From the NCBI GenBank assembly GCA_937879875.1, contig CALFMN010000154.1, positions 2,071 to 66,070 of the forward strand: a DNA stretch of 64,000 nucleotides, given 5' to 3'. Source of the DNA: an uncultured Chloroflexota bacterium. Lineage in GTDB: Bacteria > Chloroflexota > Dehalococcoidia > CAUJGQ01. Of the stretch, positions 2,861-60,575 are shown in pieces (position 1 is the first letter of the stretch; every line of letters begins with the position of its first letter). The notes beneath the pieces were generated by a model. The model was not told the origin of the DNA. It did no database searches and worked only from the letters and a program-made list of their open reading frames with translations. The position numbers and the translations under genes are program-made.

Positions 2861-4465
2861 TTACTGTGATGTCGTCGCACAGAGCGGCGCGGTCTGGGCC
2901 GACTCCCCGGCCGCGTTGACCGCCGATACCGTGACGCAGTAGGTCGTGTGCGGCGACAAGTTGCGCAGCGTATAGGCCGGCGTAGCGGCACCGACGCTGG
3001 CGATGAACGCGCCGCTCTGGCCGTCGTAGACGCGGTAACTGGCGACAGCTGGCCCGCCCTGGTCCCAGTCAAACTGAATGCTCGTTGGTCCCAGCGTTGT
3101 GTACCGCAGCCCGGTCGGTACCGCTGGCGGGCCGGCGGCGTTGCCTTGCGGGTGCGTTGAGGAGACGAAGAAGCACAGCTTGTAGGCGGTGTTGGGCTGC
3201 AGGTTCAGGTACCCCTGCGTGTCCGGCACGCTGGGGCCCTCGGATTGCAGGTGCACCAGGTAGAGGCCCGCCGGCAGGTCGAGGCTGCCCGCATCGGTCG
3301 CGGCAGCGCTGCAGCCCTGCGCGGCGTGCTGCGCTGGGTCGTACTCCGGACAGGTGCCACAGCCGCGCAATTGTCCGCCGTAGGGGGCTACGCCGGCGAG
3401 ATTGCTGTTGGTCGCGAGATCGACCTGCTGGAGGGCGGCGATCAGCGGGTAGGGACTGTCGTCCACCACGTCCAACTCCGCATCGCCGGTGCCTGCAAAG
3501 GGCTGTGGGTTGCAGCAGGCCGGGAACTGGATGGGGGTAACGTCCCCCTGGTCGGTGATGGTGACGGCCTGGTCTGTCGTGGTATCGTTGCAGGCCCAGG
3601 CGCCGCGGCCGATGCCCAGCAACGTCTGCTGCGTGTAGCTGTCGGTCAGCGGCGTGTAGACGTACACGCGGCTGGCGCCCGATACCCGAGCGGAGGCGTT
3701 CACGCTGGGGTTGCCGATCATCGCGCACTTGCCGGCCGGCAAGGTGAGGCCGACCGAGGTTTCTGGGCTCGGCGTCAGGCGGAACACCGTCTGCTTGGGC
3801 GTGTAGACCCAGTAGCCGGCACCGGCCTGGAGGTGCTGGAGGTCGGTGGTGCGATAGTCGCTGTCCGTGGGCCCGAAGGTGTAGAGTGTCGGGCTGACCG
3901 AGGACGTCGTGGAGAGCGAGAACGAGGCAGCGTTGCCGAACGACAGCAGGTTCCAGCCGGCGGGGACGTAGACCACGCTGCCTGCCGGCGCCGGCGCTTG
4001 TCCCGGCGTGCTTGGTAGGGTGGCCGCTGGCGGTGTGGCCGCGCAGGCGAGCAGCACATTCCCGCTCACGACCGGCTGCTGCGCAACGCTGAGCGTGAAG
4101 GTGTAGTGACCGGGCGGCAGCGGCGCAGCGATGAAGAACCAGACGACCCCCGCCGCCTGGTTCTCCGGGAAGTCCGTATCGCTAATCGCCTGGCTCTCGA
4201 ACGTCCAGTGGCCGGAGAGCGCGGCAGGCACCGGGAGCTGCGCGTAGCGCACGAAGACGTCGATCTCGGCGGGTGCGCAGGCTTGCAGCGTGCCACCGGG
4301 AGAGACGACATCCGGTGGCGGGCCACCACCCGGTCCACGCGTGGTGGCGAAGCCGAGAAGGCTAAAGGCCGGTGCTGGTGCGCCCGTTTGTGCGTGTGCA
4401 TGCGGCGACGCGGCCAGCAGCGCGATGCTCGCGACGGCGATCAACACGGTGCGTGTGCTGCGCAT
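2861..4465 (-). CDS. Secreted protein with C-terminal fibronectin type III domain
   Basis: Signal peptide MRSTRTVLIAVASIALLAASPHAHAQ follows an AAGGAG ribosome-binding site. The C-terminus (PAVPTGLRYTTLGPTSIQFDWDQ...YCVTVSAVNAAGES) is typical of an Fn3 domain. Pairs of Cys suggest disulfides. Confidence 0.65.
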   Translation of the reverse strand: MRSTRTVLIAVASIALLAASPHAHAQTGAPAPAFSLLGFATTRGPGGGPPPDVVSPGGTLQACAPAEIDVFVRYAQLPVPAALSGHWTFESQAISDTDFPENQAAGVVWFFIAAPLPPGHYTFTLSVAQQPVVSGNVLLACAATPPAATLPSTPGQAPAPAGSVVYVPAGWNLLSFGNAASFSLSTTSSVSPTLYTFGPTDSDYRTTDLQHLQAGAGYWVYTPKQTVFRLTPSPETSVGLTLPAGKCAMIGNPSVNASARVSGASRVYVYTPLTDSYTQQTLLGIGRGAWACNDTTTDQAVTITDQGDVTPIQFPACCNPQPFAGTGDAELDVVDDSPYPLIAALQQVDLATNSNLAGVAPYGGQLRGCGTCPEYDPAQHAAQGCSAAATDAGSLDLPAGLYLVHLQSEGPSVPDTQGYLNLQPNTAYKLCFFVSSTHPQGNAAGPPAVPTGLRYTTLGPTSIQFDWDQGGPAVASYRVYDGQSGAFIASVGAATPAYTLRNLSPHTTYCVTVSAVNAAGESAQTAPLCATTSQ

Positions 4466-4530
4466 GCCCGTCTCCTTGATGCCGAACGACAGCAGGTTCC
4501 TGCGGCGGGTTGGAGTGCCTGCACGTGCGC

Positions 4531-6854: not shown

Positions 6855-7544
6855 CTACCCGCTCTCCAGCGCACGCGGCGGCTCAGCCGCTGCGAGGCGA
6901 TAACCCAGCCCGCGCACGGTATGCAGGAACCGCGGGTTGTCGGCGTCGTCGCCCAGCTTGCGGCGCAGGCGGGAGATGATCTGCATCAGCGTCTCGTCCG
7001 CTACAGCCCCCTGCGCCTCCGGCCACAGGTGCTGCGCCAGCGCTTCCTTCGTTACTAACGCCGCGCGTTCGCGGTGGAGCAGCAGCAGCGTGCGGTACTC
7101 CTGCGCCGTGAGCTGGATCTGGCGTCCCCCGACCCAGACGGACGCACTCGCGAGGTCCAGCCGCAGGCCGTCCTCGTCAGCCTGGGCTGGCGTCCAGTCG
7201 GTGGTTTCGTCGGTTTCGAAGACGAGCCGCTGGCCCCCGAGCAGCAGGACGTCTCCGTCACGCAAAGAGTGCGGAGCAGCCAAGCGGGCACCGTTGAGGT
7301 AGGTCCCGTTCCTGCTGCCCAGGTCCTGCAATACGTACTGCTGCCCGTCCCACACCACCGCCGCGTGGCGCCGGGAGCTGCCCTTGCTGGTCAGCACGAT
7401 CGCGTTCTGCGGGTCCCGCCCGAGCGTGGTCGTCGCCGCGACGAGATCGTGCCGGGACCCGCCGTCGCGCCCATTCTGGTCAACCAGGTACGCCGTCACT
7501 CTGGTATCCCCAACGCCGGCCCCGCCGTGGATGGCGCGCGGCAC
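6855..7544 (-). CDS. FHA domain protein fused to OmpR/PhoB-type winged-helix DNA-binding domain
   Basis: The N-terminal FHA core is TLGRDPQNAIVLTSKGSSRRHAAVV...GSRNGTYLNG. The C-terminus LTAQEYRTLLLLHRERAALVTKEAL...FLHTVRGLGYRL is trans_reg_C-like. It abuts the kinase start with a 3-bp gap. Confidence 0.75.
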   Translation of the reverse strand: MPRAIHGGAGVGDTRVTAYLVDQNGRDGGSRHDLVAATTTLGRDPQNAIVLTSKGSSRRHAAVVWDGQQYVLQDLGSRNGTYLNGARLAAPHSLRDGDVLLLGGQRLVFETDETTDWTPAQADEDGLRLDLASASVWVGGRQIQLTAQEYRTLLLLHRERAALVTKEALAQHLWPEAQGAVADETLMQIISRLRRKLGDDADNPRFLHTVRGLGYRLAAAEPPRALESG

Positions 7545-28653: not shown

Positions 28654-28878
28654 GGGGCACCTAACCCTGATATCGCTGAAGCGATATCTGTCCCTTCCCG
28701 CCTCGGGAAGGGACTTCTGGAGCGCTCCACTCGCCGTGCGAGGGCAACGGGGCCGGGGTGTCCTTGTGAGACATGCAAACGGATTTTCTCCCGCACCTCC
28801 GGATATCCTCGAAGTCGTCCCTTCCAGTTTCGGGAAGGGACAGCTTTGCCGCCAGGCAAAGCAGGGTTAGGTGCCCCG
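28654..28878. mobile_element. MITE-like repeat, copy A (terminal inverted repeats GGGGCACCTAACCCTGA / TCAGGGTTAGGTGCCCC)
   Basis: The 17-bp terminal inverted repeats are perfect. Internal hairpins (GTCCCTTCCCGCCTCGGGAAGGGAC) and a TGGAGCGCTCCA palindrome are present. ORFs called within it are spurious. Confidence 0.6.
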
Positions 28879-44279: not shown

Positions 44280-44729
44280 CTAATGCCGCCCGCCCGCGGT
44301 GCGCAGCCGCCGCCGCCTCGCCACGCCGCTGCCGGTTCGCGCCGGTGGCGCGAAGCTGATCGGCGCGGCCGCTGTACGTTGCGGCGTCGGGCGGGTGCCG
44401 AGCCGCGCGGCCAGCCAGAACGCGGCCAGACTGCCGGCAATACCCAGTGCCGTGGCGATGCCGCCAAGCGCGCCGTAGCCGCTGGAGACGCGCCAGAGTA
44501 CGACCGCGTAGATGCTGAGCGCGGCGGCGGGCAAATGCTTCCACGCCGTGCGTGGGGGGCCAGAGAGGTAATAAAACGCGAGCAGCGGCATCGCCGCCGC
44601 CCAGAGCAGCGGGTAGACGGCGGTTTTAATGTGAAGCAGGGCAAATGACCAGGAGATGCCCAGCGCCATCGTCGCACCGATCAGCGCTGCGCTGCGCAGT
44701 TTCACCAATGTTGTCTGTTGAATCCGCAT
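44280..44729 (-). CDS. Small hypothetical membrane protein upstream of permease
   Basis: It has 3-4 hydrophobic helices and is co-directional with the permease, from which it is separated by 55 bp. Confidence 0.4.
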   Translation of the reverse strand: MRIQQTTLVKLRSAALIGATMALGISWSFALLHIKTAVYPLLWAAAMPLLAFYYLSGPPRTAWKHLPAAALSIYAVVLWRVSSGYGALGGIATALGIAGSLAAFWLAARLGTRPTPQRTAAAPISFAPPARTGSGVARRRRLRTAGGRH

Positions 44730-45063
44730 CGTTTCTCCGTTGCTGCGATGCAACACACCGCGAAAATGAAGCGCAGCCTACGCCGCAGCTTCACGGACGC
44801 ACCGATCGCTGCTCATCATCACTGGCTACAGTGACCCCATCTTCACGGTCAGCAGTTTCACCAGTGTGTCCCCAATGTGAAATCTATGTTTCTGCACGGT
44901 GGAAGCACCCGTGCTGATTCGCTTCCACCATAACGATCTTCTGGCTGAGCCTTACCGCAACTCCGTGCATTTCCAGCGGATTTCGCGATCGTTGCTCGAG
45001 TGTTTCGGATTGCCGGTGTTCTGCCTGGTGCGCCGGTGGAGACCGGAGCGGTGGAGACGCGCT

Positions 45064-45346
45064 GGGGCACCTACCCCCGCTTTCGCTTCAGCGAAAGCTG
45101 TTGTTGGAAGTCTCCGACGGTTGCGCTGCGGTCATCGGAAGTCTCCGACGGTTGCGCTGCGCTCTGGCCCGACACGGGAAGGGTTGGTTCCAGGACACAC
45201 TATCGGGTTGGAGGTCAGACCGCCGCATATCCCACAGGGGCACCACAACCCCGCCGCCGTCGCACTGAGTATGGAGCGCTCCAGAAGTCCCTTTCCCGCC
45301 TCGGGAAGGGACAGACGCCGCTTGCGGCGTCAGGGTTAGGTGCCCG
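45064..45346. mobile_element. MITE-like repeat, copy B
   Basis: Left end is GGGGCACCTACCCCC and right end is TCAGGGTTAGGTGCCC. Internally it carries a 24-nt tandem duplication (GGAAGTCTCCGACGGTTGCGCTGCG x2) and the GGAGCGCTCC palindrome. Confidence 0.55.
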
Positions 45347-45616: not shown

Positions 45617-47863
45617 ATGACGACAACGGCCAGCGAAGCAGATGCGACGGAGGAGTTCTTGGCCTCCGAGCCCCCGCAGCAAGAGCCCTTTGTGCCGGCG
45701 ATGCACCAGGCCGTACGGCTCCTTGCACTGCACGAGCTGGCGCTGGACGCAGCGTTGGTGCACTCCACACCAGAACTCGGCGAACGCATCGTCGACGCGG
45801 CGCTGCGCATCAGCGAGGCTGAAAGCGCATCGGTCTATTTATGGGAACCGGTCGAAGGGCTGTTGCGCGCCGTGGCCCATGGCGGCGACGCCACGCCGCT
45901 CCCACCGGAAAGTGTGCAGCCCGGACAGGGCATTACCGGCACCGTCTGGCAGCTCGGCGCGCCGCTGATGGTGGATGTTTTCGATGGCGATGACGCCGTG
46001 GGTCGCACGGGCCTGCGCGCCACACTCGCCGCGCCACTCGAGGCCGGCACGCAAAAGCTCGGCGTCGTGATCGTGCGCCGCTACGCACCGGGCGCCGCTT
46101 TCTCCGCCGAAGATACCCGCATGCTCAGCCTGCTCGCCGCGCAGGCCGGGCATCTGCTCTCGCGCCGTGCGGCAGAGGAGCAGGTGCGCGCCAGCGAAGC
46201 GCGCTTCCGCGCCCTGGTGGACTACAGTTCCGACATCATCCTCGTGCTCGACCCGATCGGCACGATCACCTTCTTGAGCCCCGCCGCCGAGCGCAGCATC
46301 GGCCGGCCCGCGGAGCGCCTGCTCGGCAGCAGCGTCTTCGAGACGATCCACCGCGAGGACGCGGAGCGCCTGCACAGCGCCCTGGACGAGGTTTCGGCAA
46401 CCGTCGGGCACCAGCGTACGGTCGAGTATCGCCAGCAGACCGGCGACGGCGCCTGGGTGTATATCGAGGCGATCCTGCGCAACTCGCTGGACGACGCCAA
46501 CGTGGACGGCATCATCGTCACCGCGCGCGATATCACCACCCGCAAGCAGGTTGAGGAACTGTTGCAGCACCAGGTGCTGCATGACGCGCTCACCGGCCTG
46601 CCGAATCGCACGCTGCTGCAGGATCGCTTGCAGCACGCCATCCGCCTGGCCTACCGGCAGCGCTCGCCGCTGGCCCTGCTCTTCCTTGATCTCGACCAGT
46701 TCAAGGAAGTCAACGACCGCTTCGGCCATCACGCCGGCGACCAGCTCTTGCAGCAGGCCGCGCCGCGCCTGCAAAGCGCCCTGCGCGACTCGGATACGCT
46801 GGCGCGGCTGGGCGGCGACGAATTCGCCGTCGTGCTGCCGGGGGCGCGCAGCGCTGATGCCGAAGTTGTAGCGCAAAAAATCGTGCGCGCCTTCGAGCAG
46901 CCGTTCGTGATCGACGGCCGCCACATCACGATGCACGTGAGCACGGGCATCGCGCTGTTCCCCGACCACGGCGCCGATGCGGAGACGCTGGTGCGTCACG
47001 CCGATCTGGCGATGTACGCCGCCAAGCGCAGCGGCAGCGACACCGCTCGCTACGGCGAGCCCGAAGAACTGGAAGACCCGAACCGGCTGGCGCTGCTTTC
47101 CGAGTTGCGCCGCGCTCTGGCCCAGCGCTGGCTGCTGCTGCACTATCAGCCCGTCGTGGAGATGCCCTCCGGCCGCATCATCCGGGCGGAGGCGCTGGCG
47201 CGCTGGCAGCACCCGGAGCGCGGCCTGCTGATGCCCGACCAGTTCATTCCCCTCGCCGAGCAGGCGGGGCTGATCGCGCCACTGACCCGCTGGGTGTTGG
47301 CTACGGCGCTGCGCCAGTGCCGCGCCTGGCGGCTGGAGGGGCTGGAACTGGGCGTCACCGTCAACCTGTCGCCCCGGCTCGGCTACAACTCGCTGCTCTC
47401 CGACACGCTCACGACGCTGCTCTCGCACCTGGAAGTCGATCCGGGCTGGCTGACGTTCGGCATCACCGACGGTGGTGTAGCGGAAGACCTGCGCCGCGCC
47501 GTGGCGATGCTGGAGCAGCTCGATGCGGCGGGCGTGCGCCTCTCCGTCGAGGGCTTCGGCTCCAGCCAGTTCACGCAGCCGCACCTGGCGCAGCTCGGCG
47601 TGGACGAGATCAAGATCGACCGGGCTCTCGTCGGACGCATGGTCTTCGACCACTCCGCGCTCGCCGTCGTGCGTTCCGTGATCGAGCTGGTGCACGGCGC
47701 CGGGCTGGTCGTGGTGGCCGAAGGCGTGGAGAATCAGGAGACCTGGGACGCGCTGCTGGCACTGGGCTGCGACGCGGCGCAGGGCTTCTTCGTCGGCCGG
47801 CCGATGCCCGCCGGCATGCTGGCGGCGCGCGTCCACGAGCAGTTGCGGGCGCGGCCCTCATAG
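45617..47863 (+). CDS. GAF-PAS-GGDEF-EAL cyclic-di-GMP turnover protein
   Basis: GGDEF is literally present (LARLGGDEFAVV). EAL (RAEALARW) and downstream DDFGSG-like/EGVE motifs are present. A GAF domain and a PAS domain lie N-terminal. Confidence 0.9.
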   Translation: MTTTASEADATEEFLASEPPQQEPFVPAMHQAVRLLALHELALDAALVHSTPELGERIVDAALRISEAESASVYLWEPVEGLLRAVAHGGDATPLPPESVQPGQGITGTVWQLGAPLMVDVFDGDDAVGRTGLRATLAAPLEAGTQKLGVVIVRRYAPGAAFSAEDTRMLSLLAAQAGHLLSRRAAEEQVRASEARFRALVDYSSDIILVLDPIGTITFLSPAAERSIGRPAERLLGSSVFETIHREDAERLHSALDEVSATVGHQRTVEYRQQTGDGAWVYIEAILRNSLDDANVDGIIVTARDITTRKQVEELLQHQVLHDALTGLPNRTLLQDRLQHAIRLAYRQRSPLALLFLDLDQFKEVNDRFGHHAGDQLLQQAAPRLQSALRDSDTLARLGGDEFAVVLPGARSADAEVVAQKIVRAFEQPFVIDGRHITMHVSTGIALFPDHGADAETLVRHADLAMYAAKRSGSDTARYGEPEELEDPNRLALLSELRRALAQRWLLLHYQPVVEMPSGRIIRAEALARWQHPERGLLMPDQFIPLAEQAGLIAPLTRWVLATALRQCRAWRLEGLELGVTVNLSPRLGYNSLLSDTLTTLLSHLEVDPGWLTFGITDGGVAEDLRRAVAMLEQLDAAGVRLSVEGFGSSQFTQPHLAQLGVDEIKIDRALVGRMVFDHSALAVVRSVIELVHGAGLVVVAEGVENQETWDALLALGCDAAQGFFVGRPMPAGMLAARVHEQLRARPS

Positions 47864-47921
47864 CCCTCTTCGCCGGCTCTCCCATCCGCGCGAGAAGCCG
47901 GAAGCGGCACGGCGGGCCGGC

Positions 47922-50912
47922 TTAGCGTCGGTCCTTCAGCAGTTGCAGCCCAGTCGCCAGCGCCCCGAACGCGACGACGAAGCCGATCAAAATCACCCAG
48001 CGGCTGATCGCCGCGCCGTCGATGGCGGCGGTCTGCGGGAACTGCTCCGGGATAATCGCCAGCTTCACCACGCCCAGCACGCGCCCCAGCGCCTCATATG
48101 TCCAGCGCGTCGTCACCAGCGCGGCCAGCGGCTGCGCCGGGCCAAGATCCTTCACCGGCTGCAGGAGGCCGCTGAAGAGGATCTGCGGCAGCATGATCAG
48201 CGGCGCGGCGAACACGGCGCGGTCGGGATTCGAAACCCCGGCCGAAACCGCGAGGGCGAGCGCGACCGACGCCGCCCCGCCCAGGGCCAGCGACAACCAG
48301 GCGCCGGTCAGCCCGCTTGCCCCGCCCGGAAAATGAATGCGCAGCGCCGTGATGCCGATCAGCAGCGTCGACTGTACGACGATCAGCGCGAACAATACCG
48401 CGAACTTCGAAGCGACGTACGGAAAGACGCGCAGATTGACTACGCGCTCGCGCCGGTAGATGGCGTCCTCCTTCGAGATCTCGCGGATCGCGTTGAGCGT
48501 GCCGAGCCAGACGATCATCGCGGCCAAAATCAGTGCGAGCTGTGTGGCTTTGCCGGCGTTCGTATTGCCGTTACCGCTTGCCAGATCGCAGTCGCCGCTG
48601 AGGCCGAGCGCGGCGATGCGTGTCGGGCTGCAGTCCGGCCCGGTCACGGCGAGCAGCGTCGCATGTGAATCGACACCGCTGATCGCGCCGGTCCTCGGAT
48701 CAGGCGTCACGGGCCGCAGGACGCCATTGTCCTTGGCGAACACGAGCACGCCGCTCGGACGTGTGAAGACCGCGGGCTTGAACAGCAACCAGAGGAAGAG
48801 CGCGAAGATCGGCGCCTGCAGGAGCAGGATCAGCAGGTTCTTGCGATCGTTCAGCACGATATTGGCGTAGCGCCGCGTCAGGATCTGGAGCTGGCGCCAG
48901 GCCACGGGCTGCGGCCGGTGCTTGCCCGGACCGGCCGTTTCGCGGCGCGGCTGCTGCGGCGCCAGGGCGGCGGCGGCGCCCTGCGGATGCTCCAGCCGCG
49001 CCTGGATCTCGTACTGATAGAAGGGCGACGCCTGGAACGACTGTTCCCACTCCTCCGGCGATCGCGTGTTCTCGATCAGGTCGTAGATATCCTCGAACTC
49101 GGCCACTCCGAAGTAATCGAGCGCGGCCCGCGGCGGACCGAAGTAGGCGATGCGGCCGCCACGCGCCAGAAAGAGCGCCTTGTCGCAGAGCGAGACGTTG
49201 CGCGTGGCGTGGGTGATCAAGAGCACCGTGCGGCCCTGGTCGGCGAGCTGGCGCAGCAGCGCCATCATGCGCGTTTCCGTGCCCGGATCCAGGCCCGAGG
49301 TCGGCTCGTCCAGGAAGAAGAGCGGCGGGCTGGTCAGCAGCTCCACGCCGATGCTGACGCGTTTGCGCTGGCCGCCGCTCAGGCTGGCCACGATCGTCTG
49401 GCGCTGGCGCTGCAAGCCCAGCTCCTCGATCACCTCGTCCAGACGGGCGGCGCGCTCGGCGGGCGTCACGTCTTCCGGCATGCGCAGCTGCGCGGCGTAG
49501 TCCAGCGCTCGCTCGACGCTCAACTCCTTGTGGATGATGTCGTCCTGCGGCACATAGCCGATCTGTGCGCGCAACGAGTCGAAATGGTCGTAGAGCGAGA
49601 AGCCGTTCAGCAAGACCTGCCCGCTGGTCGCGGGCCGCAGGCCGCTGAGCGCGCCCAGCAGTGTCGACTTGCCCGCGCCCGAGACGCCGACCACGGCCAC
49701 GAACTCGTGCGGCTGGACGACGAGCGTGATGTCCTGCAGGATCGCCGTGCCCTTGCCGACGAGCTTGCGCAGGTTGAGCGCCTCCAGCAGGATGCCCGTC
49801 GTCTCGTCGAAGTGCTCGATCTCACCCTGGCGCACCGTCAGGCGGTACGGCCCGATGCGAATCACGTCGCCTTCGCGCAACTGGCGCTCGGCGATCGCCT
49901 CGCCGTTGACGTAGGTGCGGTTGGTGCTCTTGAGGTCGCTGATCACCCAGGGCGCATCGGCGGCGGCGCGGACGACGACGGCGTGCTCGCGCGACACCTG
50001 CGGCGACGGCAGCACGAGGTCGTTGCTGGCAACGCGGCCGACGGTAATCCGCGCCGCGCCGGGCTCGTGCGGTACCACGCGCGGCCGTGTATCGCTGCCG
50101 GGCGGAAGCGGTCCCGGTGCGAGCGGCGGCGCGCTGCCCCCGCGAGCCGGCTCGATCGCGGCAGTAGTGCCGAGCATGCTGGCAGAAGCGGGCGCCGGCT
50201 GCGGCTCGGCGCCGCTCTCTCGACGAAGTGCCTGGGTCACCGCGTCCGGATCGGTCGTGCCGCCCGGCGCCGCGACGAGCGTCTGCGGATCATCGGCGCG
50301 CAGGGCGAAGGTGATGGTCACAGCGCCGGAGAGCTGGAACGTTTCACCGTCGTTGAGCAGCGCTTCTTCGACCGGCTGGCCGTTGATCGAGGTGCCGTTG
50401 CGGCTGTGCAGATCGACGACCTCCCAGCGCTCGCCCCGCCGGCGCACCACCGCGTGATGCACCGAGACGGTCGGCAGATCGATGGGAATGTCGTTAGTGT
50501 TGCCGCGGCCGATCGTCACCTCATCGCGCTGCATGCGCACGCTGAAGCGACGGTTGGGCGTGTGGACGTAGAGCACGGGCCGGAAGTCGGTGTTCGTCGC
50601 GGTTGCCGGGCGTGCGGCCATGGCCGGCGCCTTCAGCGTGAGCTGAAACGAGCCGATGCCGATACGATCGCTGGGGCCGACCTCGGCCGTTTCGCTGCGC
50701 AGCACGCGTCCGTTCAGCGTCGTGCCGTTGGCGCCGCCCAAGTCTTCGACGAAGATCGACGCGGCCCGGCGCACGATGCGGGCGTGATGGCGCGAGACGC
50801 TCGCATCGGCCAGCACCAAATCGTTGTCGGTGGAGCGGCCGACGGTGATGTCGTCCTTGTCGGACGCCTCCTGGCGGGCGTCTCCGTCGCGTTCGATCAG
50901 CAGTTCGAGCAT
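47922..50912 (-). CDS. FHA(x3)-ABC ATPase-ABC-2 permease fusion (ABCG-like half transporter), paralogue 1
   Basis: Three FHA cores are VGRSTDNDLVL...GTTLNG, IGRGNTNDIPI...GTSING and VGRVASNDLVL...RTYVNG. Walker A is GVSGAGKST, the signature is LSGGQRKRVSIG, and Walker B is LFFLDEPTSGLD. A 6-TM ABC-2 domain is C-terminal. Start was taken at MLELLIERDG. Confidence 0.85.
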   Translation of the reverse strand: MLELLIERDGDARQEASDKDDITVGRSTDNDLVLADASVSRHHARIVRRAASIFVEDLGGANGTTLNGRVLRSETAEVGPSDRIGIGSFQLTLKAPAMAARPATATNTDFRPVLYVHTPNRRFSVRMQRDEVTIGRGNTNDIPIDLPTVSVHHAVVRRRGERWEVVDLHSRNGTSINGQPVEEALLNDGETFQLSGAVTITFALRADDPQTLVAAPGGTTDPDAVTQALRRESGAEPQPAPASASMLGTTAAIEPARGGSAPPLAPGPLPPGSDTRPRVVPHEPGAARITVGRVASNDLVLPSPQVSREHAVVVRAAADAPWVISDLKSTNRTYVNGEAIAERQLREGDVIRIGPYRLTVRQGEIEHFDETTGILLEALNLRKLVGKGTAILQDITLVVQPHEFVAVVGVSGAGKSTLLGALSGLRPATSGQVLLNGFSLYDHFDSLRAQIGYVPQDDIIHKELSVERALDYAAQLRMPEDVTPAERAARLDEVIEELGLQRQRQTIVASLSGGQRKRVSIGVELLTSPPLFFLDEPTSGLDPGTETRMMALLRQLADQGRTVLLITHATRNVSLCDKALFLARGGRIAYFGPPRAALDYFGVAEFEDIYDLIENTRSPEEWEQSFQASPFYQYEIQARLEHPQGAAAALAPQQPRRETAGPGKHRPQPVAWRQLQILTRRYANIVLNDRKNLLILLLQAPIFALFLWLLFKPAVFTRPSGVLVFAKDNGVLRPVTPDPRTGAISGVDSHATLLAVTGPDCSPTRIAALGLSGDCDLASGNGNTNAGKATQLALILAAMIVWLGTLNAIREISKEDAIYRRERVVNLRVFPYVASKFAVLFALIVVQSTLLIGITALRIHFPGGASGLTGAWLSLALGGAASVALALAVSAGVSNPDRAVFAAPLIMLPQILFSGLLQPVKDLGPAQPLAALVTTRWTYEALGRVLGVVKLAIIPEQFPQTAAIDGAAISRWVILIGFVVAFGALATGLQLLKDRR

Positions 50913-50970
50913 GGTCCGTCCATGATAGTCGTCACGATTCTGAAGGTCATCTGGCAACGTCGGCGGCGCA

Positions 50971-51178
50971 GGGCACCTAACCCCGCCGCGCCTGAAGGCA
51001 CGTCTCCCTTCCCGACACGGGAAGGGTTGGTCCGAGGATGGGTGAGAGCCCGCCGCGCGTCCCACAAGGACACCCCGGCTCCGCCGCCGTCCGCCGTCGG
51101 CGGGAACGCTCCAAAAGTCCCTTCCAGTTTCGGGAAGGGACAGACCTGGCTTCAGCCAGGGCAGGGTTAGGTGCCCCG
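50971..51178. mobile_element. MITE-like repeat, copy C, between FHA-ABC paralogues 1 and 2
   Basis: GGGCACCTAACCCC...GCAGGGTTAGGTGCCCC ends are present, with internal GTCCCTTCCAGTTTCGGGAAGGGAC hairpins. Confidence 0.6.
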
Positions 51179-51224
51179 CCCAGCGGCCAGCGTTCGCCCC
51201 ATTGCCGCGATCGACGGTCAGCCC

Positions 51225-54059
51225 TCATCGCCGGTCCTTCAGCCGCTGGAGGCCGACGGCCAGCGCACCGAACGCGGCGACGAAACAGAGCAGGATCAGC
51301 AGGCGCGTGATCGCCGTGCCGTCGGCGGCGTCCCGAAACTGAAACTTGCTGCGCAGCGTGGTGGCCGTCGAGACGACATTCGAGATCCGTGCGAGCGCCT
51401 CGAACGTCCAGCGGCTGGCGATCAGCGCCGCCAGCGGCTTCGCGACGCCGAGCTGACTCACCGGCACGAAGATCCCGGCGAAGAAGACCTGCGGCAGCAT
51501 GATCAGCGGCGCCGCAAACACCGCGCGGTCGGGGTTCGAAACGGCCGCCGAGACAGCCAGCGCCAGCGCCACGGCGGCGGAGCCGCCGAGCACCAGGCAG
51601 AGCCACATGCCGACATCAGCGCCGCCGCCGGGCATATCGACCTTGATGGCGACAACGCTGAAGAGCAAGGTCGCCTGCACGACCACCAGCGCCAGCAACA
51701 CGGCGAACTTGGACGCGATGTAGGGAAAGACGCGCAGGTTGACCAACCGCTCGCGCCGGTAGATCGCGTCTTCCTTCGAAATCTCGCGCACGGCGTTCAA
51801 CGTGCCCAGCCAAACCGCGGTAGCCGCAAGGATGAATGCGAGCTGAATCGCCTTATTCGCCTTCCAGTTGCCGTCGCCGCTATCGACGGCGCATGTACTC
51901 GACGGCGTGGGATTGCGAGGATCGCAGTTGCCGGTGAACGCCGCGGGCTGCGCGCCGAGCCGACCGACGGTGTAGCCCGGAGGCCGCTGAAAGAGGTTGG
52001 CCTGCGGAAACAGCGCCCAGAGCAGGACGGCGATAATCGGCGCCTGCAGCAGCAGGATGGCCAGATTCTTGCGGTCGCGCAACACGATCTCGCCGTAGCG
52101 CCGCGTGAGGATCGAGAACTGGCGCCAGGCCTCGTTGCGCGTGCCGTGCTGGCCCGGCCCGGCCGTGACCGGCCGCGACTGCACCGGCGTGGCGGCGGCG
52201 GCGCCCGGCGTGTTGACGATGCGGCTGCCGATCTCCGACTGGTACAGCGGCGAGGCGTGGAAGCGCTGCTCCCACTCCTCGGGCGAGCGCGTGTTCTCGA
52301 TCAGGTCGTAGATCTCGTCGAAGCGGCCGACGCCGAAGTATTGCAGCGCCATGTCCGGTGCGCCGAAGAAGGCGAGCCGCCCGCCGCGTGCCAGGAAGAC
52401 CACGCGGTCGCACTGCGCGATGTTCACCGTGGCGTGCGTAATCAGCAGGATCGTGCGGCCCTGGTCGGCGAGCTGGCGCAAGAGCGCCATCATGCGCGTC
52501 TCGGTCGCCGGATCGAGGCCGGACGTTGGCTCGTCCAGGAAGAAGAGCGGCGGCTTGGTCAGCAGCTCCACGCCGATGCTGACGCGCTTGCGCTGGCCGC
52601 CGCTCAGGCTCGCTACGACCGTGCTCTTCTGCGCCTCCAGCCCCAGCTCGCCGATCACCTCGGACACCCGCGCGTTGCGTTCAGCCGGGCTGGTGTCCGC
52701 CGGCATGCGCAGCTCTGCGGCGTAGTTCAGCGCCCGCTGCACGCTCAGCTCCTTGTGGATGATATCGTCCTGCGGCACGTAGCCGATCTGCTGACGCAGC
52801 GCGTCGAAGTGCTCGTACAGCGAGAAGCCGTTCAGCAGCACCTGGCCCTTTGTCGCCGGGCGCAGGCCGCTGAGCGCGCCCAGCAGTGTCGACTTGCCCG
52901 CGCCCGACACGCCGACGATGCCGACGAACTCATGCGGCTGCACCACCAGCGTGATCGGTTGCAGGATCGTCTTGCCTTTGCCGACCTGTTTGGTCAGGCC
53001 GAAGGCTTCCAGCAACATGCCGGCGGTCTCGTCGAAGTGCTCGATCTCGCCGTGCCGCACCGTCAGCCGAAAGGGGCCGATGCGTACGACGTCGCCTTCG
53101 GCGAGTTGCCGCTGTGCGACGGCGTCGCCGTTGACATACGTGCGGTTCATGCTGCCCAGGTCCGTAATCGACCAGGGCGCGCCCTCCGCCGGCCGCTCAA
53201 GCACCGCATGCTGCCGTGAGATCTGCGGCGAATCAAGCACCAGCTGATTCTGCGGCGAGCGGCCGATCGTCAGGTGGACGGCGCCGGGACCATGCGGGAC
53301 CAGCCCCTGCGTGCGCGGCCGCCCGCCCGACGAGACAGCCAGCGCCGCCGGTTTCAGGCGGAAGGTCAGCGCCACGTCGGTGCCGAGCGCGACGCGGTCG
53401 CCGTCGTGCAGCGGGGCCGACTCGATCTGCCGGCCGTTGACGAAGGTGCCGTTGCGGCTGCGCAGGTCGATCACCGTCCAGCCGTCGTCCTGGCGGCAAA
53501 CCATCGCGTGGCTGGCGGAGAGCGTGGGGGCCGCAAGGGAGATGTCGTTGCCAGGGCCGCGTCCCAGCGTCGCCTCGTCGCGCTGCATGATGAAGCTGAA
53601 GCTGCGCCCGTCGGCCTCGATCAGCAACTCCGGCCGGGCAGCCGCGAGATTCGCGGGCGTCGTCGCGCCCGGCGCTCCGGCGGCAGCAGTTTGACGCAGA
53701 TTGACGGCCGCGGGCGGCGGGGAAGGCGCGAAGCCGCCGGCGGCTGCCACTGTGCCGCCCAGCGGCTGACCGAGCTCGTACGCCGCGATGCGGTAGGCGC
53801 CGACGACGAACTCCTCGCCAGGCCGAATCTGTGCGGCTTCGGATCGCAGCAGGCGGCCGTTGAGCTGTGTGCCATTGGTCCCGCCGAGGTCTTCGAGATA
53901 GAGCGCGCCGTTGCGTTGCACCACGCGGGCGTGCTGCCGCGAAACGCTCTCGTCCGGCAGCACGATGTCGTTGCCGGGTGCACGGCCCAGGGACGCCTCC
54001 TCACGGGAGACCGTCTGTTCGCGCGATGCCGAACCACCCTCGATGCGAAAGCGCAGCAT
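51225..54059 (-). CDS. FHA(x3)-ABC ATPase-ABC-2 permease fusion, paralogue 2
   Basis: It has the same architecture and motifs as paralogue 1, for example GVSGAGKST and LSGGQRKRVSIG. It is 944 aa. Confidence 0.85.
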   Translation of the reverse strand: MLRFRIEGGSASREQTVSREEASLGRAPGNDIVLPDESVSRQHARVVQRNGALYLEDLGGTNGTQLNGRLLRSEAAQIRPGEEFVVGAYRIAAYELGQPLGGTVAAAGGFAPSPPPAAVNLRQTAAAGAPGATTPANLAAARPELLIEADGRSFSFIMQRDEATLGRGPGNDISLAAPTLSASHAMVCRQDDGWTVIDLRSRNGTFVNGRQIESAPLHDGDRVALGTDVALTFRLKPAALAVSSGGRPRTQGLVPHGPGAVHLTIGRSPQNQLVLDSPQISRQHAVLERPAEGAPWSITDLGSMNRTYVNGDAVAQRQLAEGDVVRIGPFRLTVRHGEIEHFDETAGMLLEAFGLTKQVGKGKTILQPITLVVQPHEFVGIVGVSGAGKSTLLGALSGLRPATKGQVLLNGFSLYEHFDALRQQIGYVPQDDIIHKELSVQRALNYAAELRMPADTSPAERNARVSEVIGELGLEAQKSTVVASLSGGQRKRVSIGVELLTKPPLFFLDEPTSGLDPATETRMMALLRQLADQGRTILLITHATVNIAQCDRVVFLARGGRLAFFGAPDMALQYFGVGRFDEIYDLIENTRSPEEWEQRFHASPLYQSEIGSRIVNTPGAAAATPVQSRPVTAGPGQHGTRNEAWRQFSILTRRYGEIVLRDRKNLAILLLQAPIIAVLLWALFPQANLFQRPPGYTVGRLGAQPAAFTGNCDPRNPTPSSTCAVDSGDGNWKANKAIQLAFILAATAVWLGTLNAVREISKEDAIYRRERLVNLRVFPYIASKFAVLLALVVVQATLLFSVVAIKVDMPGGGADVGMWLCLVLGGSAAVALALAVSAAVSNPDRAVFAAPLIMLPQVFFAGIFVPVSQLGVAKPLAALIASRWTFEALARISNVVSTATTLRSKFQFRDAADGTAITRLLILLCFVAAFGALAVGLQRLKDRR

Positions 54060-54139
54060 GATCGCCGCTTCTCATCCAACCACTGAATGCGTGCCTGTGA
54101 CGGCACCGGCTCATCGTCTGATCGTGGGAAACTGGCGGT

Positions 54140-57055
54140 TCACCGCCGGTCTTTGGTGCGTTGCAGCGCCGCGGCGAGCACGCCGAACGCCACGACGAAA
54201 CCCAGCAGGATCAGCCAGCGGCTGACAGCGCTGCCGTCGAGTCCGTCCCGGTACAGGAATACGGGCGGCAGCGCGGTCGCATTGATGATCCCGGCGGCGC
54301 GCCCAGCCGCCTCGAAGGTCCAGCGTGCGGTTGTGAGCGCCGCCAACGGCTGGGCCGGACCGAGCTTCGACACGGGCACGAGCAGCCCGGCGAAGAAGAT
54401 CTGCGGCAGCATGATCAGTGGCGCGGCGAACACGGCACGGTCGGGGTTGGAGACGGCGGCGGAGACGGCGAGCGCGACCGCGACCGAGGCAGCCCCGCCC
54501 AGCACCAGGGCGAGCCAGACGCCGGGCACGCCGCCCGCCGGTACCGGGACACGGATCAGCGCGACGCCGAAGAGCAGCGTCGCCTGGATGGCGACGAGAA
54601 CCAATAACACGGCGAACTTCGAGGCGATATAAGGGAAGACGCGCAGGTTCACCAGCCGCTCGCGGCGGTAGATGGCGTCTTCCTTCGAGATCTCGCGGAT
54701 CGCGTTCAGCGTGCCCAGCCAAACGGCGGTCGCGGCGAGGATGAAGGCCATGCGCGCGGCTTCGGAGGCGTTGCCGTTGCCGTTGCCCTGGTCCTGATGG
54801 CAGCCTGGTTCGTTAAAGGGATTGCCCCGATCGGAGCAACCCGTTCCTGTGAAGACGATGAAGGTAGGGACGTTGCTTTGACCCGATTGCCCGCCCGCGC
54901 CCTGGCGAAGACCGGGATTCCGTTTGAATTGCAACTCGGCTTGCTTCACCCCGACGGGATCGAGCGCGATCGGCCCCTGCGCGCCGTCTATGACGATTAC
55001 TGGATTGGGCGGCGCCTTGAACAGATTCCCATTGGTGAACAGCGCCCAGAGCAACACGGCGATGATCGGCGCCTGCAAGAGCAGAATCGCCAGGTTCTTG
55101 CGGTCGCGCAGCACGATCTCCGCGTAGCGCCGCGTCAGGATCTTGAACTGGCGCAGCGACTCCGACGGCTGGCGCGCCTGGCCCGGTACGTAGACTGCCC
55201 ACACTTTCGGCGCCGGCGCAACGAGCGCCGCCCCCGGCAGGTGTTCGATACGCTCGGCAATCTCGCTCTGGTAAAGCGGCGAGGCGGCGAACGACACCTC
55301 CCACTCCTCCGGCGTGCGCTGGTTCTCGATCAGGTCGTAGATGTCTTCGAACTCGCGCACGCCGAAGTAGTCGAGGGCAACTTTCGGTGCGCCGTAGAAG
55401 GCGACACGGCCGCCGCGCGCCAGAAACAGTACACGATCGCACATCGAGACGTTGCGCGTGGCGTGCGTGATCAGGAGCACCGTGCGGCCCTGGTCGGCGA
55501 GCTGGCGCAGCAGCGCCATCATGCGCGTTTCCGTGCCCGGATCGAGGCCCGAGGTCGGCTCGTCCAGGAAGAAGAGCGGCGGGCTGGTCAGCAACTCCAC
55601 GCCGATGCTGACGCGCTTGCGCTGGCCGCCGCTCAGGCTCGCCACCACCGTCTGGCGCTGCTGTTCGAGGCCCAGCTCGGCCAGTACCTCGCTCACACGC
55701 GCGGTCTTCGCGGCCGGCGGCAACTCGGCAGGCAGGCGCAACTCGGCCGCGTACTCCAGCGCTCGTTCGACCGGCAGCTCGCGGTGGATGATATCGTCCT
55801 GCGGCACGTAGCCGATCTTCGCGCGCAGCGCCTCGAAGTGCTCGTAGAGCGACATGCCGTTCAGCAGCACCTGGCCGGAGGTCGCCGGCCGGAAGCCGCT
55901 GAGCGCGCCGAGCAGCGTCGATTTGCCTGCACCCGAGACGCCGACCACGGCCACGAACTCCTGCGGCCGCACGACCAGCGAGACGTTGTTGAGGATCACC
56001 TTGCCGTTGTCGACTTCGCGCCGCAGGTTGAGCGCTTCGAGCAGGATGGAGGCCGGCTCCGGCTCGGCCGGGATCGGCGGTGGCGCCGGCGCGATCTGAG
56101 CAACCTCGACGATCCGCGGCGGTCGCGGCGCCTGCCGGTTCCCCCCGCCGAGCGGCCCCGCACCGCCCAGCGGTCCGACCCCACGCCGCGGCCCAGGCGC
56201 CGCGTCCGGCCGGGCCACGACGGCTGGACGCGCGTTCGGACTGCCGAGAGGGGGCACGGGCCGGAAGAACGACGCGCCCGCATCCGCTTCTCCCGGCGCC
56301 GGCGGCGCGGCCGCGATCTGCGCCACCGGCTCGCGCAGCTCTTCGGGCCGCACGGCCGCGGTTTCGACGAGCTGCGTCGCCTGCGGCTGCTGGCTGACCG
56401 GCACCTCGGTGCTCAGATGCGAGCTTTCCACGAAGCGAAAGATGACAGTTACGGAGTCTGCGAGCTGAAAGCGGGTTCCGTCTTTGAGCAACTCCTCCTC
56501 GATGCGCCGGCCGTCCATCTGCGTGCCGTTGCGGCTGTTGAGGTCGACGATCTCGAAACGGTCGCCCAGGCGGCGCACGACGGCATGGTGCGAGGAAACC
56601 GTACCCACGCGGACGGTGAGGTCGTTCGACTCGGCGCGGCCGATCGAGACCTGGTCATGCTCGATCGGATAGGTGAAACGGCCGTCCGGCGTCTCCACGA
56701 TCAGCATCGGCCGCGGCTGCGCGGGTGCTGGTGCAGCCGTGGCGCCCTGCTGTCCAACGAGCCCGACGTGCAATAAGGCATGGAGCTGGAAGGGGCCGAT
56801 GCCGACGAGGTCGCCCGGCTTCACCTCGGCCCAGGCGTTCATCAGCAGGTTGCCGTTGACGCGCGTGCCGTAGGTTCCCCACAGGTCTTCGACGTAGATG
56901 GCGTCGCCGTGGCGCCAGAGGCGGGCGTGGCGCAGCGAAACGCCCGCATCCGCCAGCACGACATCGTTGTCCGGCGCGCGCCCCAGCGTCACCTCATCCC
57001 GGTCAAGCATCTCCTCCCGAGACTGGCCGGCACCCGCGATTTGCAGCCGGATCAT
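54140..57055 (-). CDS. FHA(x2)-Pro-rich linker-ABC ATPase-ABC-2 permease fusion, paralogue 3
   Basis: Two FHA cores are followed by about 110 aa of Pro/Ala/Gly-rich linker, then the ABC and ABC-2 domains. Start was taken at MIRLQIAG. Confidence 0.85.
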   Translation of the reverse strand: MIRLQIAGAGQSREEMLDRDEVTLGRAPDNDVVLADAGVSLRHARLWRHGDAIYVEDLWGTYGTRVNGNLLMNAWAEVKPGDLVGIGPFQLHALLHVGLVGQQGATAAPAPAQPRPMLIVETPDGRFTYPIEHDQVSIGRAESNDLTVRVGTVSSHHAVVRRLGDRFEIVDLNSRNGTQMDGRRIEEELLKDGTRFQLADSVTVIFRFVESSHLSTEVPVSQQPQATQLVETAAVRPEELREPVAQIAAAPPAPGEADAGASFFRPVPPLGSPNARPAVVARPDAAPGPRRGVGPLGGAGPLGGGNRQAPRPPRIVEVAQIAPAPPPIPAEPEPASILLEALNLRREVDNGKVILNNVSLVVRPQEFVAVVGVSGAGKSTLLGALSGFRPATSGQVLLNGMSLYEHFEALRAKIGYVPQDDIIHRELPVERALEYAAELRLPAELPPAAKTARVSEVLAELGLEQQRQTVVASLSGGQRKRVSIGVELLTSPPLFFLDEPTSGLDPGTETRMMALLRQLADQGRTVLLITHATRNVSMCDRVLFLARGGRVAFYGAPKVALDYFGVREFEDIYDLIENQRTPEEWEVSFAASPLYQSEIAERIEHLPGAALVAPAPKVWAVYVPGQARQPSESLRQFKILTRRYAEIVLRDRKNLAILLLQAPIIAVLLWALFTNGNLFKAPPNPVIVIDGAQGPIALDPVGVKQAELQFKRNPGLRQGAGGQSGQSNVPTFIVFTGTGCSDRGNPFNEPGCHQDQGNGNGNASEAARMAFILAATAVWLGTLNAIREISKEDAIYRRERLVNLRVFPYIASKFAVLLVLVAIQATLLFGVALIRVPVPAGGVPGVWLALVLGGAASVAVALAVSAAVSNPDRAVFAAPLIMLPQIFFAGLLVPVSKLGPAQPLAALTTARWTFEAAGRAAGIINATALPPVFLYRDGLDGSAVSRWLILLGFVVAFGVLAAALQRTKDRR

Positions 57056-57087
57056 GCAGCGCTCCGTGGCCAGAGCTGGCCGGCGTG

Positions 57088-57519
57088 TCAATCTTCTTGC
57101 ACCGGCCAGCGCCAGTCTACCACGCGCTCCGGCTGAATGCGGATGACGGGCAGCTCTTCCAGCGCCATCTCACGATATTGCGGATAGCGTGCGCGCAAGG
57201 CCACGATCGCCGCGAGCTGCTCGCCGCCCGGCAGCACAATCTGCGCCGTTCCGCGTATCTGCAGCCAGCGCAGCCGGCGCCAGTCCTCGTCGTAGTCGTC
57301 AACCGTGAGACAGACGGCGGGATTTGCTGCGAGGTCACGGACGCGGCGCAGGCGCTCGACCGGCACGCGTTTCGGCTTGCGATCGAGCGGCGTGTAGATA
57401 GCGCCGCCGTAGAGCGCGAAGCAGACGGGCACGACGTGCGGTTTGCTCGCGCCGTCGGCCGTGGCGAAGTGCGCTACGCGATGCGCCAGCAGGAAGGCGG
57501 TCTGTTCAGGGGAAAGCAT
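57088..57519 (-). CDS. PPOX-class (pyridoxamine 5'-phosphate oxidase-like) probable F420-dependent enzyme
   Basis: MLSPEQTAFLLAHRVAHFATADGASKPHVVPVCFALYGGAIY is the typical split-barrel N-terminus. It is 143 aa and lies 33 bp upstream of FHA-ABC paralogue 3. Confidence 0.7.
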   Translation of the reverse strand: MLSPEQTAFLLAHRVAHFATADGASKPHVVPVCFALYGGAIYTPLDRKPKRVPVERLRRVRDLAANPAVCLTVDDYDEDWRRLRWLQIRGTAQIVLPGGEQLAAIVALRARYPQYREMALEELPVIRIQPERVVDWRWPVQED

Positions 57520-57553: not shown

Positions 57554-57771
57554 GGGCACCTAACCCTGACCTGGCTGAAGCCAGGTCTGTCCCTTCCCGA
57601 CACAGGAAGGGTGGGTTCGAGGACAGACAAAGATTGGGAGACAATCCGTCTGCGCTTCCCACAAGGACACCGCCGCCCCGCCGTCGCACAGAGTATGGAG
57701 CGCTCCAGAAGTCCCTTCCCGCCTCGGGAAGGGACAGACTTCCCGCCAGGGAAGTCAGGGTTAGGTGCCCC
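57554..57771. mobile_element. MITE-like repeat, copy D
   Basis: Terminal inverted repeats GGGGCACCTAACCCTGA / TCAGGGTTAGGTGCCCC are perfect. Coordinates were cross-checked against the codons of the spurious ORF 57474..57797. Confidence 0.6.
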
Positions 57772-59882: not shown

Positions 59883-59985
59883 CGCCGGCCCAGGCTGTGA
59901 CCCGCCCTGGTGAAGGTCACGGCTGGCGCCGCGACGGGCGGTTCAATCTCGGTGCGTCACGCTGACGGCGGCCAGGCTCTTCCGC

Positions 59986-60018
59986 TCCAGAAAATGCGAG
60001 AGGAGCGCCACCCCTGCG
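59986..60018. other. Perfect 13-bp-stem hairpin GCGAGAGGAGCGC-N7-GCGCTCCTCTCGC
   Basis: It was read directly and lies just 3' of the aminotransferase gene. It may be a terminator, although no T-tract follows. Confidence 0.3.
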
Positions 60019-60192
60019 CTCCTCTCGCGTGGCTGCGGTGATGCTTCGGTGCGCGGAGGACCGAACCCCGACCTCCGTGCCACACCCCCGACGCCGATGT
60101 CCGCGGCGGGCGACCGGGCTACTGCGCCCGCCGGTCCACTCGCAGCGTAGGTTACCCCGGGCAGGGGAACAGTCCGGCCGGCGGCGCATCGC

Positions 60193-60215
60193 CTGTCAGG
60201 AAAAACCTGACAGGC
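60193..60215. other. Hairpin CCTGTCAGG-AAAAA-CCTGACAGG (same TGTCAG half-site as the 7559-7576 region)
   Basis: It is a perfect 9-bp inverted repeat inside a 690-bp gene-free stretch. Confidence 0.3.
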
Positions 60216-60575
60216 AGGGGCGTGGCCCTCATAGCGCCCTGTTCCACGCCTCACCAAAATCATCCTTGACTCCGGTGGACACTGCGGTCGACCAATGACC
60301 GCCTGCAGTGGGCCAGACCGGTTCAATCCGTCTCACGACCCATCCGCGCCCGACACCGCCTCTCTTGCCCACGACCGCGGCGTTGGCTATGCTCGGCCTC
60401 TGTGTGGCCATGCACCGGGCCGTCCGTACCGTCCACATTGAGCAGGATGCGTGACCGGCCGCCCCGCACAGCCGCGCTCGCGCATGTACAGGGCAGCCAG
60501 CGCCTCCCGCCAGCCGTTGGACGGTGTGGCGGTCCACAGGTCCCGACCTGCTCCAACCCTGATGCAGAATCCGGG

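Follow-up and report, generated by a model that had tools for sequence, protein, structure and literature searches.

Introduction

Experimental work on ATP-binding cassette (ABC) exporters fused to FHA domains has been confined to Rv1747 of Mycobacterium tuberculosis. In this protein two threonines of the linker are phosphorylated by the kinase PknF and are bound by both FHA domains; the pump becomes active on phosphorylation, and clustering or phase separation of its regulatory module is reversible with the phosphatase PstP (PMC3138270, PMC9312465, PMC7761784). A role for Rv1747 in the export of phosphatidylinositol mannosides (PIM) has been proposed (PMC5549992). A literature search for three-FHA or tandem FHA-ABC transporters found nothing relevant. 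Here we describe three neighboring genes, designated A, B and C, each of which encodes several FHA domains, an ABC ATPase and an ABC-2 permease, in a 64-kb stretch of contig CALFMN010000154.1 from an uncultured Chloroflexota bacterium (the whole stretch is hereafter called the window). We consider it likely that the three are intact, selectively maintained paralogues encoding FHA-regulated, ABCG-like half-transporters (ABC-2, type V fold), and that they go back to tandem duplication, old and specific to the lineage, within a Dehalococcoidia-type Chloroflexota clade.

Results

Organization of the array

Four consecutive co-directional genes in the order PPOX-C-B-A occupy the minus strand of the window from 47.9 to 57.5 kb (Table 1), and public gene calls on the source contig, which is 69,767 bp long, concur. 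The G+C content of the window is 65-72%. An earlier reading of this DNA from its letters alone, here called the original prediction, had described A, B and C as consecutive FHA-ABC-ABC2 fusions, two with three FHA domains and one with two FHA domains and a Pro-rich linker. Open reading frames (ORFs), gene calls and Pfam agreed with this description. Three FHA domains were detected in A (E 1e-57), three in B (4e-59) and two in C (3.5e-31). Each protein also contained a single ABC_tran domain (E about 1e-30 each) and a single ABC2_membrane domain (55.7-66.3 bits, gathering score 26.9), with a further match to ABC2_membrane_3, and the order was FHA-FHA-(FHA)-ABC_tran-ABC2_membrane in one polypeptide. 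The longest ORF of gene A begins with a GTG at 51065, and this extension, which is not the called start, enters a copy of a miniature inverted-repeat transposable element (MITE); in alignments, the starts of B, C and the orthologues coincide with the ATG at 50912.

The FHA domains are separated by linkers which carry conserved threonines. In protein A the 67-aa linker contains AVTQAL and TTAAIEP motifs that are conserved across orthologues, and the linker at aa 101-138 of protein B contains GGTVAAA and LRQTAAA. Across the clade the conserved linker threonines lie in AVTQA[L/I] and TAAIEP in A, in GGTVAAA and LRQTAAA in B, and in TQ[L/M]V and TAAV in C. Protein C has, in place of FHA3, a linker of 135 aa (19% P and 17% A; window positions 56021-56425). 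A degenerate or frame-shifted third FHA domain in C was ruled out, as maximum-sensitivity hidden Markov model searches, blastp, and tblastn of the other frames found no FHA3 remnant in any frame.

The residues that bind phosphothreonine (GR, SxxH, and the N of NGT/NRT) are present in seven of the eight FHA domains of the three proteins. The exception is FHA1 of protein C, which reads WGTYGT at aa 60-64 where the others read GG(A/T)NGT, with Tyr replacing the peptide-contacting Asn. This substitution is common to both C orthologues, that of the window and that of the related genome L001 described below, and suggests that phosphothreonine binding by this domain is altered or lost.

Transport core and predicted structure

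The ATPase motifs, the D-loop included, are identical in A, B and C: Walker A GVSGAGKST, Q-loop YVPQDD, signature LSGGQRKR, Walker B LFFLDEPTSGLD, and H-loop ITHAT. None of the three has a degenerate ATP site, and six hydrophobic segments were found in each. Given canonical ATPase motifs and a six-helix ABC-2 domain in every copy, each protein should dimerize into an ATP-driven exporter or floppase.

An AlphaFold2 model of protein B (94-sequence alignment) had a mean confidence (pLDDT) of 88.8 and a predicted template-modeling score (pTM) of 0.75. Predicted disorder was limited to the inter-FHA linkers (aa 101-138 and 238-249, pLDDT below 50) and a short connector between the nucleotide-binding domain (NBD) and the transmembrane domain (TMD). 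The model places a beta-hairpin loop with two invariant Cys between transmembrane helices TM1 and TM2 (aa 696-725); the length of this loop varies among the paralogues, and the first extracellular loop is longest in protein C.

The original prediction had called the proteins ABCG-like half-transporters. Consistent with this, the NBD precedes the TMD, and Foldseek matched the model of B to ABCG2, ABCG1, ABCG5/G8 and plant ABCG25/16 (E about 1e-24, target template-modeling score 0.79-0.84; 0.8-0.84 for ABCG2, G5/G8, G1 and G25) at 20-23% identity over about 630 columns. The best NCBIfam match of all three proteins was TIGR00955 (ABCG/white, TC 3.A.1.204), with 194-203 bits against a cut-off of 736. 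Since the predicted fold superposes yet this score lies far below the cut-off, ABCG-like is a fair description of how the proteins appear to be built and not of family membership. A PDB sequence search for a solved full-length relative returned matches at the level of the NBD only.

Relatives and age of the duplications

The closest named database relatives are proteins from metagenome-assembled genomes (MAGs) labelled Dehalococcoidia bacterium. In L001 (GCA_037025045) the locus reads aminotransferase-AlkA / PPOX-C-B-A-D-(FHA protein)-PP2C; in L003-L005 (GCA_035310145 and two metagenome contigs) it reads PPOX-B-A-D-(FHA protein)-PP2C, and in L088/L089 A-D-(FHA protein)-PP2C. Gene D is a fourth ABC-ABC2 paralogue without FHA domains, with products of 667-716 aa in relatives (714 aa in L001). 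The group formed by D, a convergent gene for a soluble stand-alone FHA protein (241-252 aa, Pro/Ala-rich tail) and PP2C was located at 16008-20083 in L001, 13063-16862 in L003 and 3273-7231 in L088. None of these three genes was found downstream of A or elsewhere in the 64-kb window. One D-like candidate, P0017, was set aside because it comes from another sample and context.

Genes A, B and C have one-to-one orthologues in related MAGs at 78-89% identity. Between paralogues, identity is only 59-64% at the protein level and 66-70% at the DNA level. In a neighbor-joining tree of the NBD-TMD core, A, B and C of the window each paired with their positional counterpart (bootstrap 100), and A/B/C/D together were monophyletic (bootstrap 100). 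Orthologue pairs had nonsynonymous divergence (dN) of 0.07-0.16 and ratios to synonymous divergence (dN/dS) of 0.13-0.24, compared with a dN of 0.29-0.37 for paralogue pairs. It follows from these comparisons that duplication came before the separation of these genomes and that purifying selection acts on every copy. The window sequence fell with L003 and not with L001 in the B and A orthogroups (bootstrap 73 and 89); on this topology the absence of C from L003 is most simply explained by loss.

We also weighed the prospect that the three copies are an assembly artefact, in which a contig was collapsed or duplicated, or that they are redundant and decaying. Apart from the risk common to metagenome assemblies, nothing spoke for it. 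The copies differ too much in DNA (identities above), independent assemblies in ENA, JGI and NCBI records and from related MAGs gave the same order of genes, and protein B was present on five independently assembled contigs. With divergence and independent assembly excluding an artefact, and with intact reading frames and the dN/dS values given above arguing against decay, we regard this explanation as so improbable that it can be set aside.

Mobile-element copies and spacers

The original prediction had taken MITE copies interleaved with the array as a sign that it was built or remodelled recently. Three such copies were found near the array, and a fourth at 28655-28876 (Table 1). They form a family of 206-281 bp with terminal inverted repeats GGGGCACCTAACCC and internal palindromes CCCTTCCCG/CGGGAAGGG; the 13-nt core of the terminal repeat had eight matches in the window compared with 0.03 expected. 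The elements are short and non-coding, have terminal inverted repeats, occur in several copies, and have an empty counterpart in the B-A spacer of L001 and L003. No clear target-site duplication was seen at their flanks in alignments, in which the exact element ends were not mapped, and no Rfam match to the elements or spacers was found.

Under the alternative of recent origin, the array would have been assembled or amplified by MITE-associated recombination. MITE-like copies are indeed present between B and A, upstream of PPOX, and at a distance of 2.5 kb past gene A, and the region downstream of A does differ from that of relatives, with a GGDEF-EAL gene in place of D-FHA-PP2C. The orthologue and paralogue phylogeny and dN/dS values described above are, however, incompatible with recent amplification, each paralogue having its own orthologue. 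Alignment to the empty sites points the same way. The B-A spacer is 312 nt in the window versus 76 nt in L001 and 34 nt in L003, where the element is absent and the flanks are conserved, and the AlkA/PPOX spacer measures 55 nt in L001 from gene coordinates. In addition, no MITE lies at the synteny breakpoints (about 47863-47922 and about 59900-60500). The claim of a recent, MITE-driven array was therefore rejected, and we hold it to be very improbable. As the spacers are short and empty in relatives, the elements are best read as late, simple, lineage-specific insertions that left gene content unchanged.

If transcribed, the copy in the B-A spacer would fold into a single long hairpin (-149 kcal/mol, z -7.2). 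Between this element and the start of gene A a consensus scan found one sigma-70-like hexamer pair (0.7 sites expected), whose -10 hexamer lies in a stretch, CACTATCATGGACGGACCATG, that is conserved in relatives. This pair is a candidate promoter for gene A and a weak lead. Together, the hairpin and the promoter-like pair downstream of it raise the possibility that gene A may be transcriptionally uncoupled from PPOX-C-B in this genome. A terminator scan gave fewer sites than in shuffled sequence and was uninformative.

Divergence among the paralogues

Identity between the paralogues varied greatly by region. The NBD was 76-80% identical, the first intracellular loop (IL1) 90-95%, TM5a 88-94% and TM2 64-72%. 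In contrast, identity was 37-52% in FHA1/FHA2, 11-32% in linker 1 and 30-45% in the first extracellular loop (EL1). By these alignments, nearly all divergence is shown to fall in three places, namely the FHA input module, the linkers that bear Thr and are predicted to be disordered, and the extracellular loops, with the transport engine nearly unchanged. Since the outer loops differ, each paralogue may have its own substrate or outer partner.

The same data bear on whether the paralogues are obligate heterodimer partners, like ABCG5/ABCG8, forming one or two fixed heteromeric exporters and not independent homodimers. A and B were neighbors in all related genomes seen, mixed dimers appear possible on steric grounds given the conservation of IL1 and of TM2 and TM5a, the presumed interface helices by homology to ABCG2, and the D protein of relatives, which has no FHA domain, could borrow the regulation of a partner. 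Every catalytic motif is nevertheless kept in all three NBDs, and the degenerate site that typifies obligate ABC heterodimers is absent. The absence of C from L003 and of D from the window shows partners to be dispensable, and arrays elsewhere arose independently with varying numbers of genes. Fixed heteromers seem to us unlikely.

Distribution of the family

The wider family is large, with 7194 of 8000 scored candidates at E<=1e-30 and at least 565 loci in species-representative genomes. Members occur in Chloroflexota (Anaerolineae, Chloroflexia, Dehalococcoidia, Thermomicrobiales), Cyanobacteria, Actinomycetota (Thermoleophilia, Gaiellales) and others. Among 123 proteins, comprising the 120 closest cluster representatives and the three window proteins, 102 had three FHA domains and only six had two, a count somewhat biased by the three-FHA query. 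When the regulatory module alone was searched against 1.84 billion representatives, 76 matches at E<=1e-30 and 7,328 at E<=1e-10 were obtained, in many architectures. This shows that multi-FHA modules are common; it gives no measure of how large the family is.

Tandem arrays were found in other genomes. In a Thermoflexaceae MAG (L010; JAYUAG010000246.1, 3-8541) three consecutive 3xFHA-ABC-ABC2 genes derive from duplications of their own (bootstrap 98); co-directional pairs occur in L034 and L038, and a divergent pair in L072, a complete cyanobacterial genome. Tandem expansion, at about 5% of sampled loci, is a minority condition yet recurrent. The triplicated array had been presented as something different from the single exporters of mycobacteria. 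This stands relative to M. tuberculosis only: the three-FHA form is the majority among the closest 120 homologues, and arrays recur independently.

The gene neighborhoods of 80 unrelated loci were surveyed with up to 10 kb of flank, many of them truncated. A full Hanks kinase domain was present within 10 kb in 31 of the 80. Downstream of the ABC core, at up to 3.5 kb, there were 22 co-directional kinase hits, and a PP2C gene was present in 13 of the 80. In FHA1-FHA2 linkers the pattern T..[ILV] occurred 78 times against 42 +/- 6 in shuffles, an approximately two-fold excess. A common Thr motif, (G)(Q/H)TVV[IVA], recurs in these linkers across several phyla (P0001-P0120; aa 101-107 in B of the window), and its threonine is a candidate conserved phospho-acceptor and FHA ligand.

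Neighboring genes

An F420-type PPOX enzyme had been predicted to precede the array, and the gene at this position matched TIGR03668 (F420-dependent, Rv0121 family) with 144.4 bits against a cut-off of 119.15. Its product is a predicted F420-dependent PPOX-class oxidoreductase of the Rv0121 family. The gene shares its strand with C, from which it is separated by 32 nt on the upstream side, and the two relatives L001 and L003 also have it next to the array, with gaps of 30 nt and 212 nt. It might on these grounds form one functional unit with the exporters, for example by making or modifying the exported substrate. The three genomes which share this arrangement are close relatives, so that synteny carries little weight, and none of the 80 surveyed loci of other lineages had a PPOX homologue within 10 kb. 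PPOX as a family-wide partner was rejected on this count, and a functional unit in the present clade is improbable.

The GAF-PAS-GGDEF-EAL gene does converge on the array as had been described, and it is absent from the loci of relatives. We regard this gene, the PPOX gene and the MITEs as neighbors and not as parts of the system. Between the amino-acid permease and GGDEF-EAL genes, an ORF of 149-158 aa with no Pfam family (44280-44756, minus strand) adjoins the MITE-like copy at 45065-45345.

A Hanks-type kinase gene and an FHA/OmpR regulator gene were confirmed in the window. Their arrangement is EmbR/PknH-like, and the next gene downstream (2861-4534) carries an fn3 domain.

Table 1. Positions of the array genes, neighboring genes and other features of the window, with the domain layout of the three transporters.
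Feature	Position	Strand	Description	Basis
Gene A	47922-50912	-	996 aa, 3 FHA	ORFs, gene calls, Pfam
Gene B	51225-54059	-	944 aa, 3 FHA	ORFs, gene calls, Pfam
Gene C	54140-57055	-	971 aa, 2 FHA and Pro/Ala-rich linker	ORFs, gene calls, Pfam
PPOX-class gene	57088-57519	-	143 aa	TIGR03668, PNPOx_N
Protein A			FHA1 aa 1-94, short linker, FHA2 aa 111-205, 67-aa linker, FHA3 aa 277-361	Pfam, FHA coordinates
Protein A beyond FHA3			NBD, then 6-TM ABC-2 domain	Pfam, hydrophobic segments
Protein B			FHA1 aa 1-94, disordered linker aa 101-138, FHA2 aa 142-237, FHA3 aa 262-335	
Protein B core			NBD about aa 344-610, TMD aa 641-943	
Protein C			FHA1 aa 1-93, FHA2 aa 115-210, Pro/Ala-rich linker aa 211-345, then NBD and TMD	
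Sigma-70-like hexamer pair	50922-50950	-	between MITE and gene A start	consensus scan
MITE-like copy	28655-28876		terminal repeat	
MITE-like copy	45065-45345		terminal repeat; extra ~75-nt internal insert including a tandemly repeated stretch	
MITE-like copy	50971-51176		inside 312-nt B-A spacer; terminal inverted repeat GGGCACCTAACCC	
MITE-like copy	57554-57770		divergent AlkA/PPOX spacer, upstream of PPOX-C-B transcription unit	
GAF-PAS-GGDEF-EAL gene	45617-47863	+	converges on gene A	
Hanks kinase gene	4531-6852	-	773 aa; overlaps stop of FHA-OmpR gene	
FHA-OmpR (Trans_reg_C) regulator gene	6855-7544	-	directly upstream of kinase gene	

Discussion

By analogy with Rv1747, a Hanks kinase would phosphorylate the conserved linker threonines in T-x-x-[I/L/V] motifs, FHA domains would bind the resulting phosphothreonines in cis or in trans, and this binding would activate or cluster the transporters. 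A PP2C phosphatase, of the kind encoded beside the array in relatives, may reverse the activation or clustering. The three copies would then represent one export engine wired to different phospho-inputs and to different outer-face partners or substrates. The exported substrate is probably an envelope lipid or glycolipid, a best guess which draws on analogy with type V exporters and on the proposed export of PIM by Rv1747 (PMC5549992).

Several observations weigh against phosphorylation control of this array. No kinase or PP2C gene lies beside it; the only kinase of the window, which the original prediction had implicitly linked to the exporters, is 41 kb away and is paired with its own adjacent FHA-OmpR gene, and the implied link is not supported. 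The kinases found near homologous loci in the family survey, which otherwise favor this reading, are raw counts and not enrichments over a genome-wide baseline. The Tyr substitution in FHA1 of protein C means that not every FHA domain need bind phosphothreonine. Lastly, the sequence comparison with Rv1747 covered its isolated FHA domains (6CAH and 6CCD) only, which matched at E 2.6e-9 and 1.1e-7, the level of generic FHA domains.

A more speculative extension, to which we give only a small chance, is combinatorial export gated by phosphorylation, in which paralogues with graded FHA number (3, 3, 2, and 0 in relatives) mix as heterodimers and in shared phosphothreonine-FHA clusters, three FHA domains being ancestral. 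If so, one kinase/PP2C signal would re-partition several exporter species with different extracellular loops, and the clusters would resemble Rv1747 condensates. The three-FHA module with a (G)(Q/H)TVV-type linker Thr would be a widespread ancestral form in Chloroflexota and Cyanobacteria, and the two-FHA Rv1747 a derived case.

Three FHA domains are the commoner natural arrangement in these exporters. This form occurs widely in Chloroflexota, Cyanobacteria and Actinomycetota and has undergone tandem duplication several times independently. The duplicates differ in their regulatory modules and outer loops around a constant engine, and the set of 3, 3, 2 and 0 FHA domains therefore offers a natural series in which to study the tuning of an ABC transporter by FHA valency. 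No new principle emerges, and with an uncultured organism the practical value is modest.

Comparison with known systems

In architecture the array proteins are analogous to Rv1747. As in that protein, N-terminal FHA domains, here joined by Thr-bearing linkers that are predicted to be disordered, are followed by the NBD and the ABC-2 TMD in one polypeptide (PMC3138270, PMC7761784), and homologous genes across the family are often near Hanks kinases. In contrast to Rv1747, A and B have three FHA domains and not two, and three tandem paralogues (four in one relative) replace a single gene. The kinase that pknF-Rv1747 carries in its operon is missing here, whereas relatives carry an adjacent stand-alone FHA protein and PP2C. 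The linkers are also shorter, at 38-67 aa compared with about 150 aa for Rv1747 (PMC7761784).

With the eukaryotic ABCG transporters the array proteins share the reverse NBD-then-TMD order, the need to dimerize and a predicted fold that superposes. They differ in their N-terminal FHA modules and in the outer element that is elaborated, here the TM1-TM2 hairpin with its two Cys; in ABCG2 a large extracellular loop lies between TM5 and TM6. Unlike the asymmetric ABCG5/G8, all NBDs of the array are canonical.

The same architecture, at 39-45% full-length identity, is found in the uncharacterized 3xFHA-ABC-ABC2 proteins of Chloroflexota, Cyanobacteria and Actinomycetota, which carry the database label 'FHA domain-containing protein'. 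The array is an old, clade-specific member of this very common, database-known and experimentally unstudied branch of Rv1747-like FHA-ABC exporters, set apart from the rest by its separate clade-specific duplications and by FHA counts of 3, 3 and 2, with 0 in the D protein of relatives.

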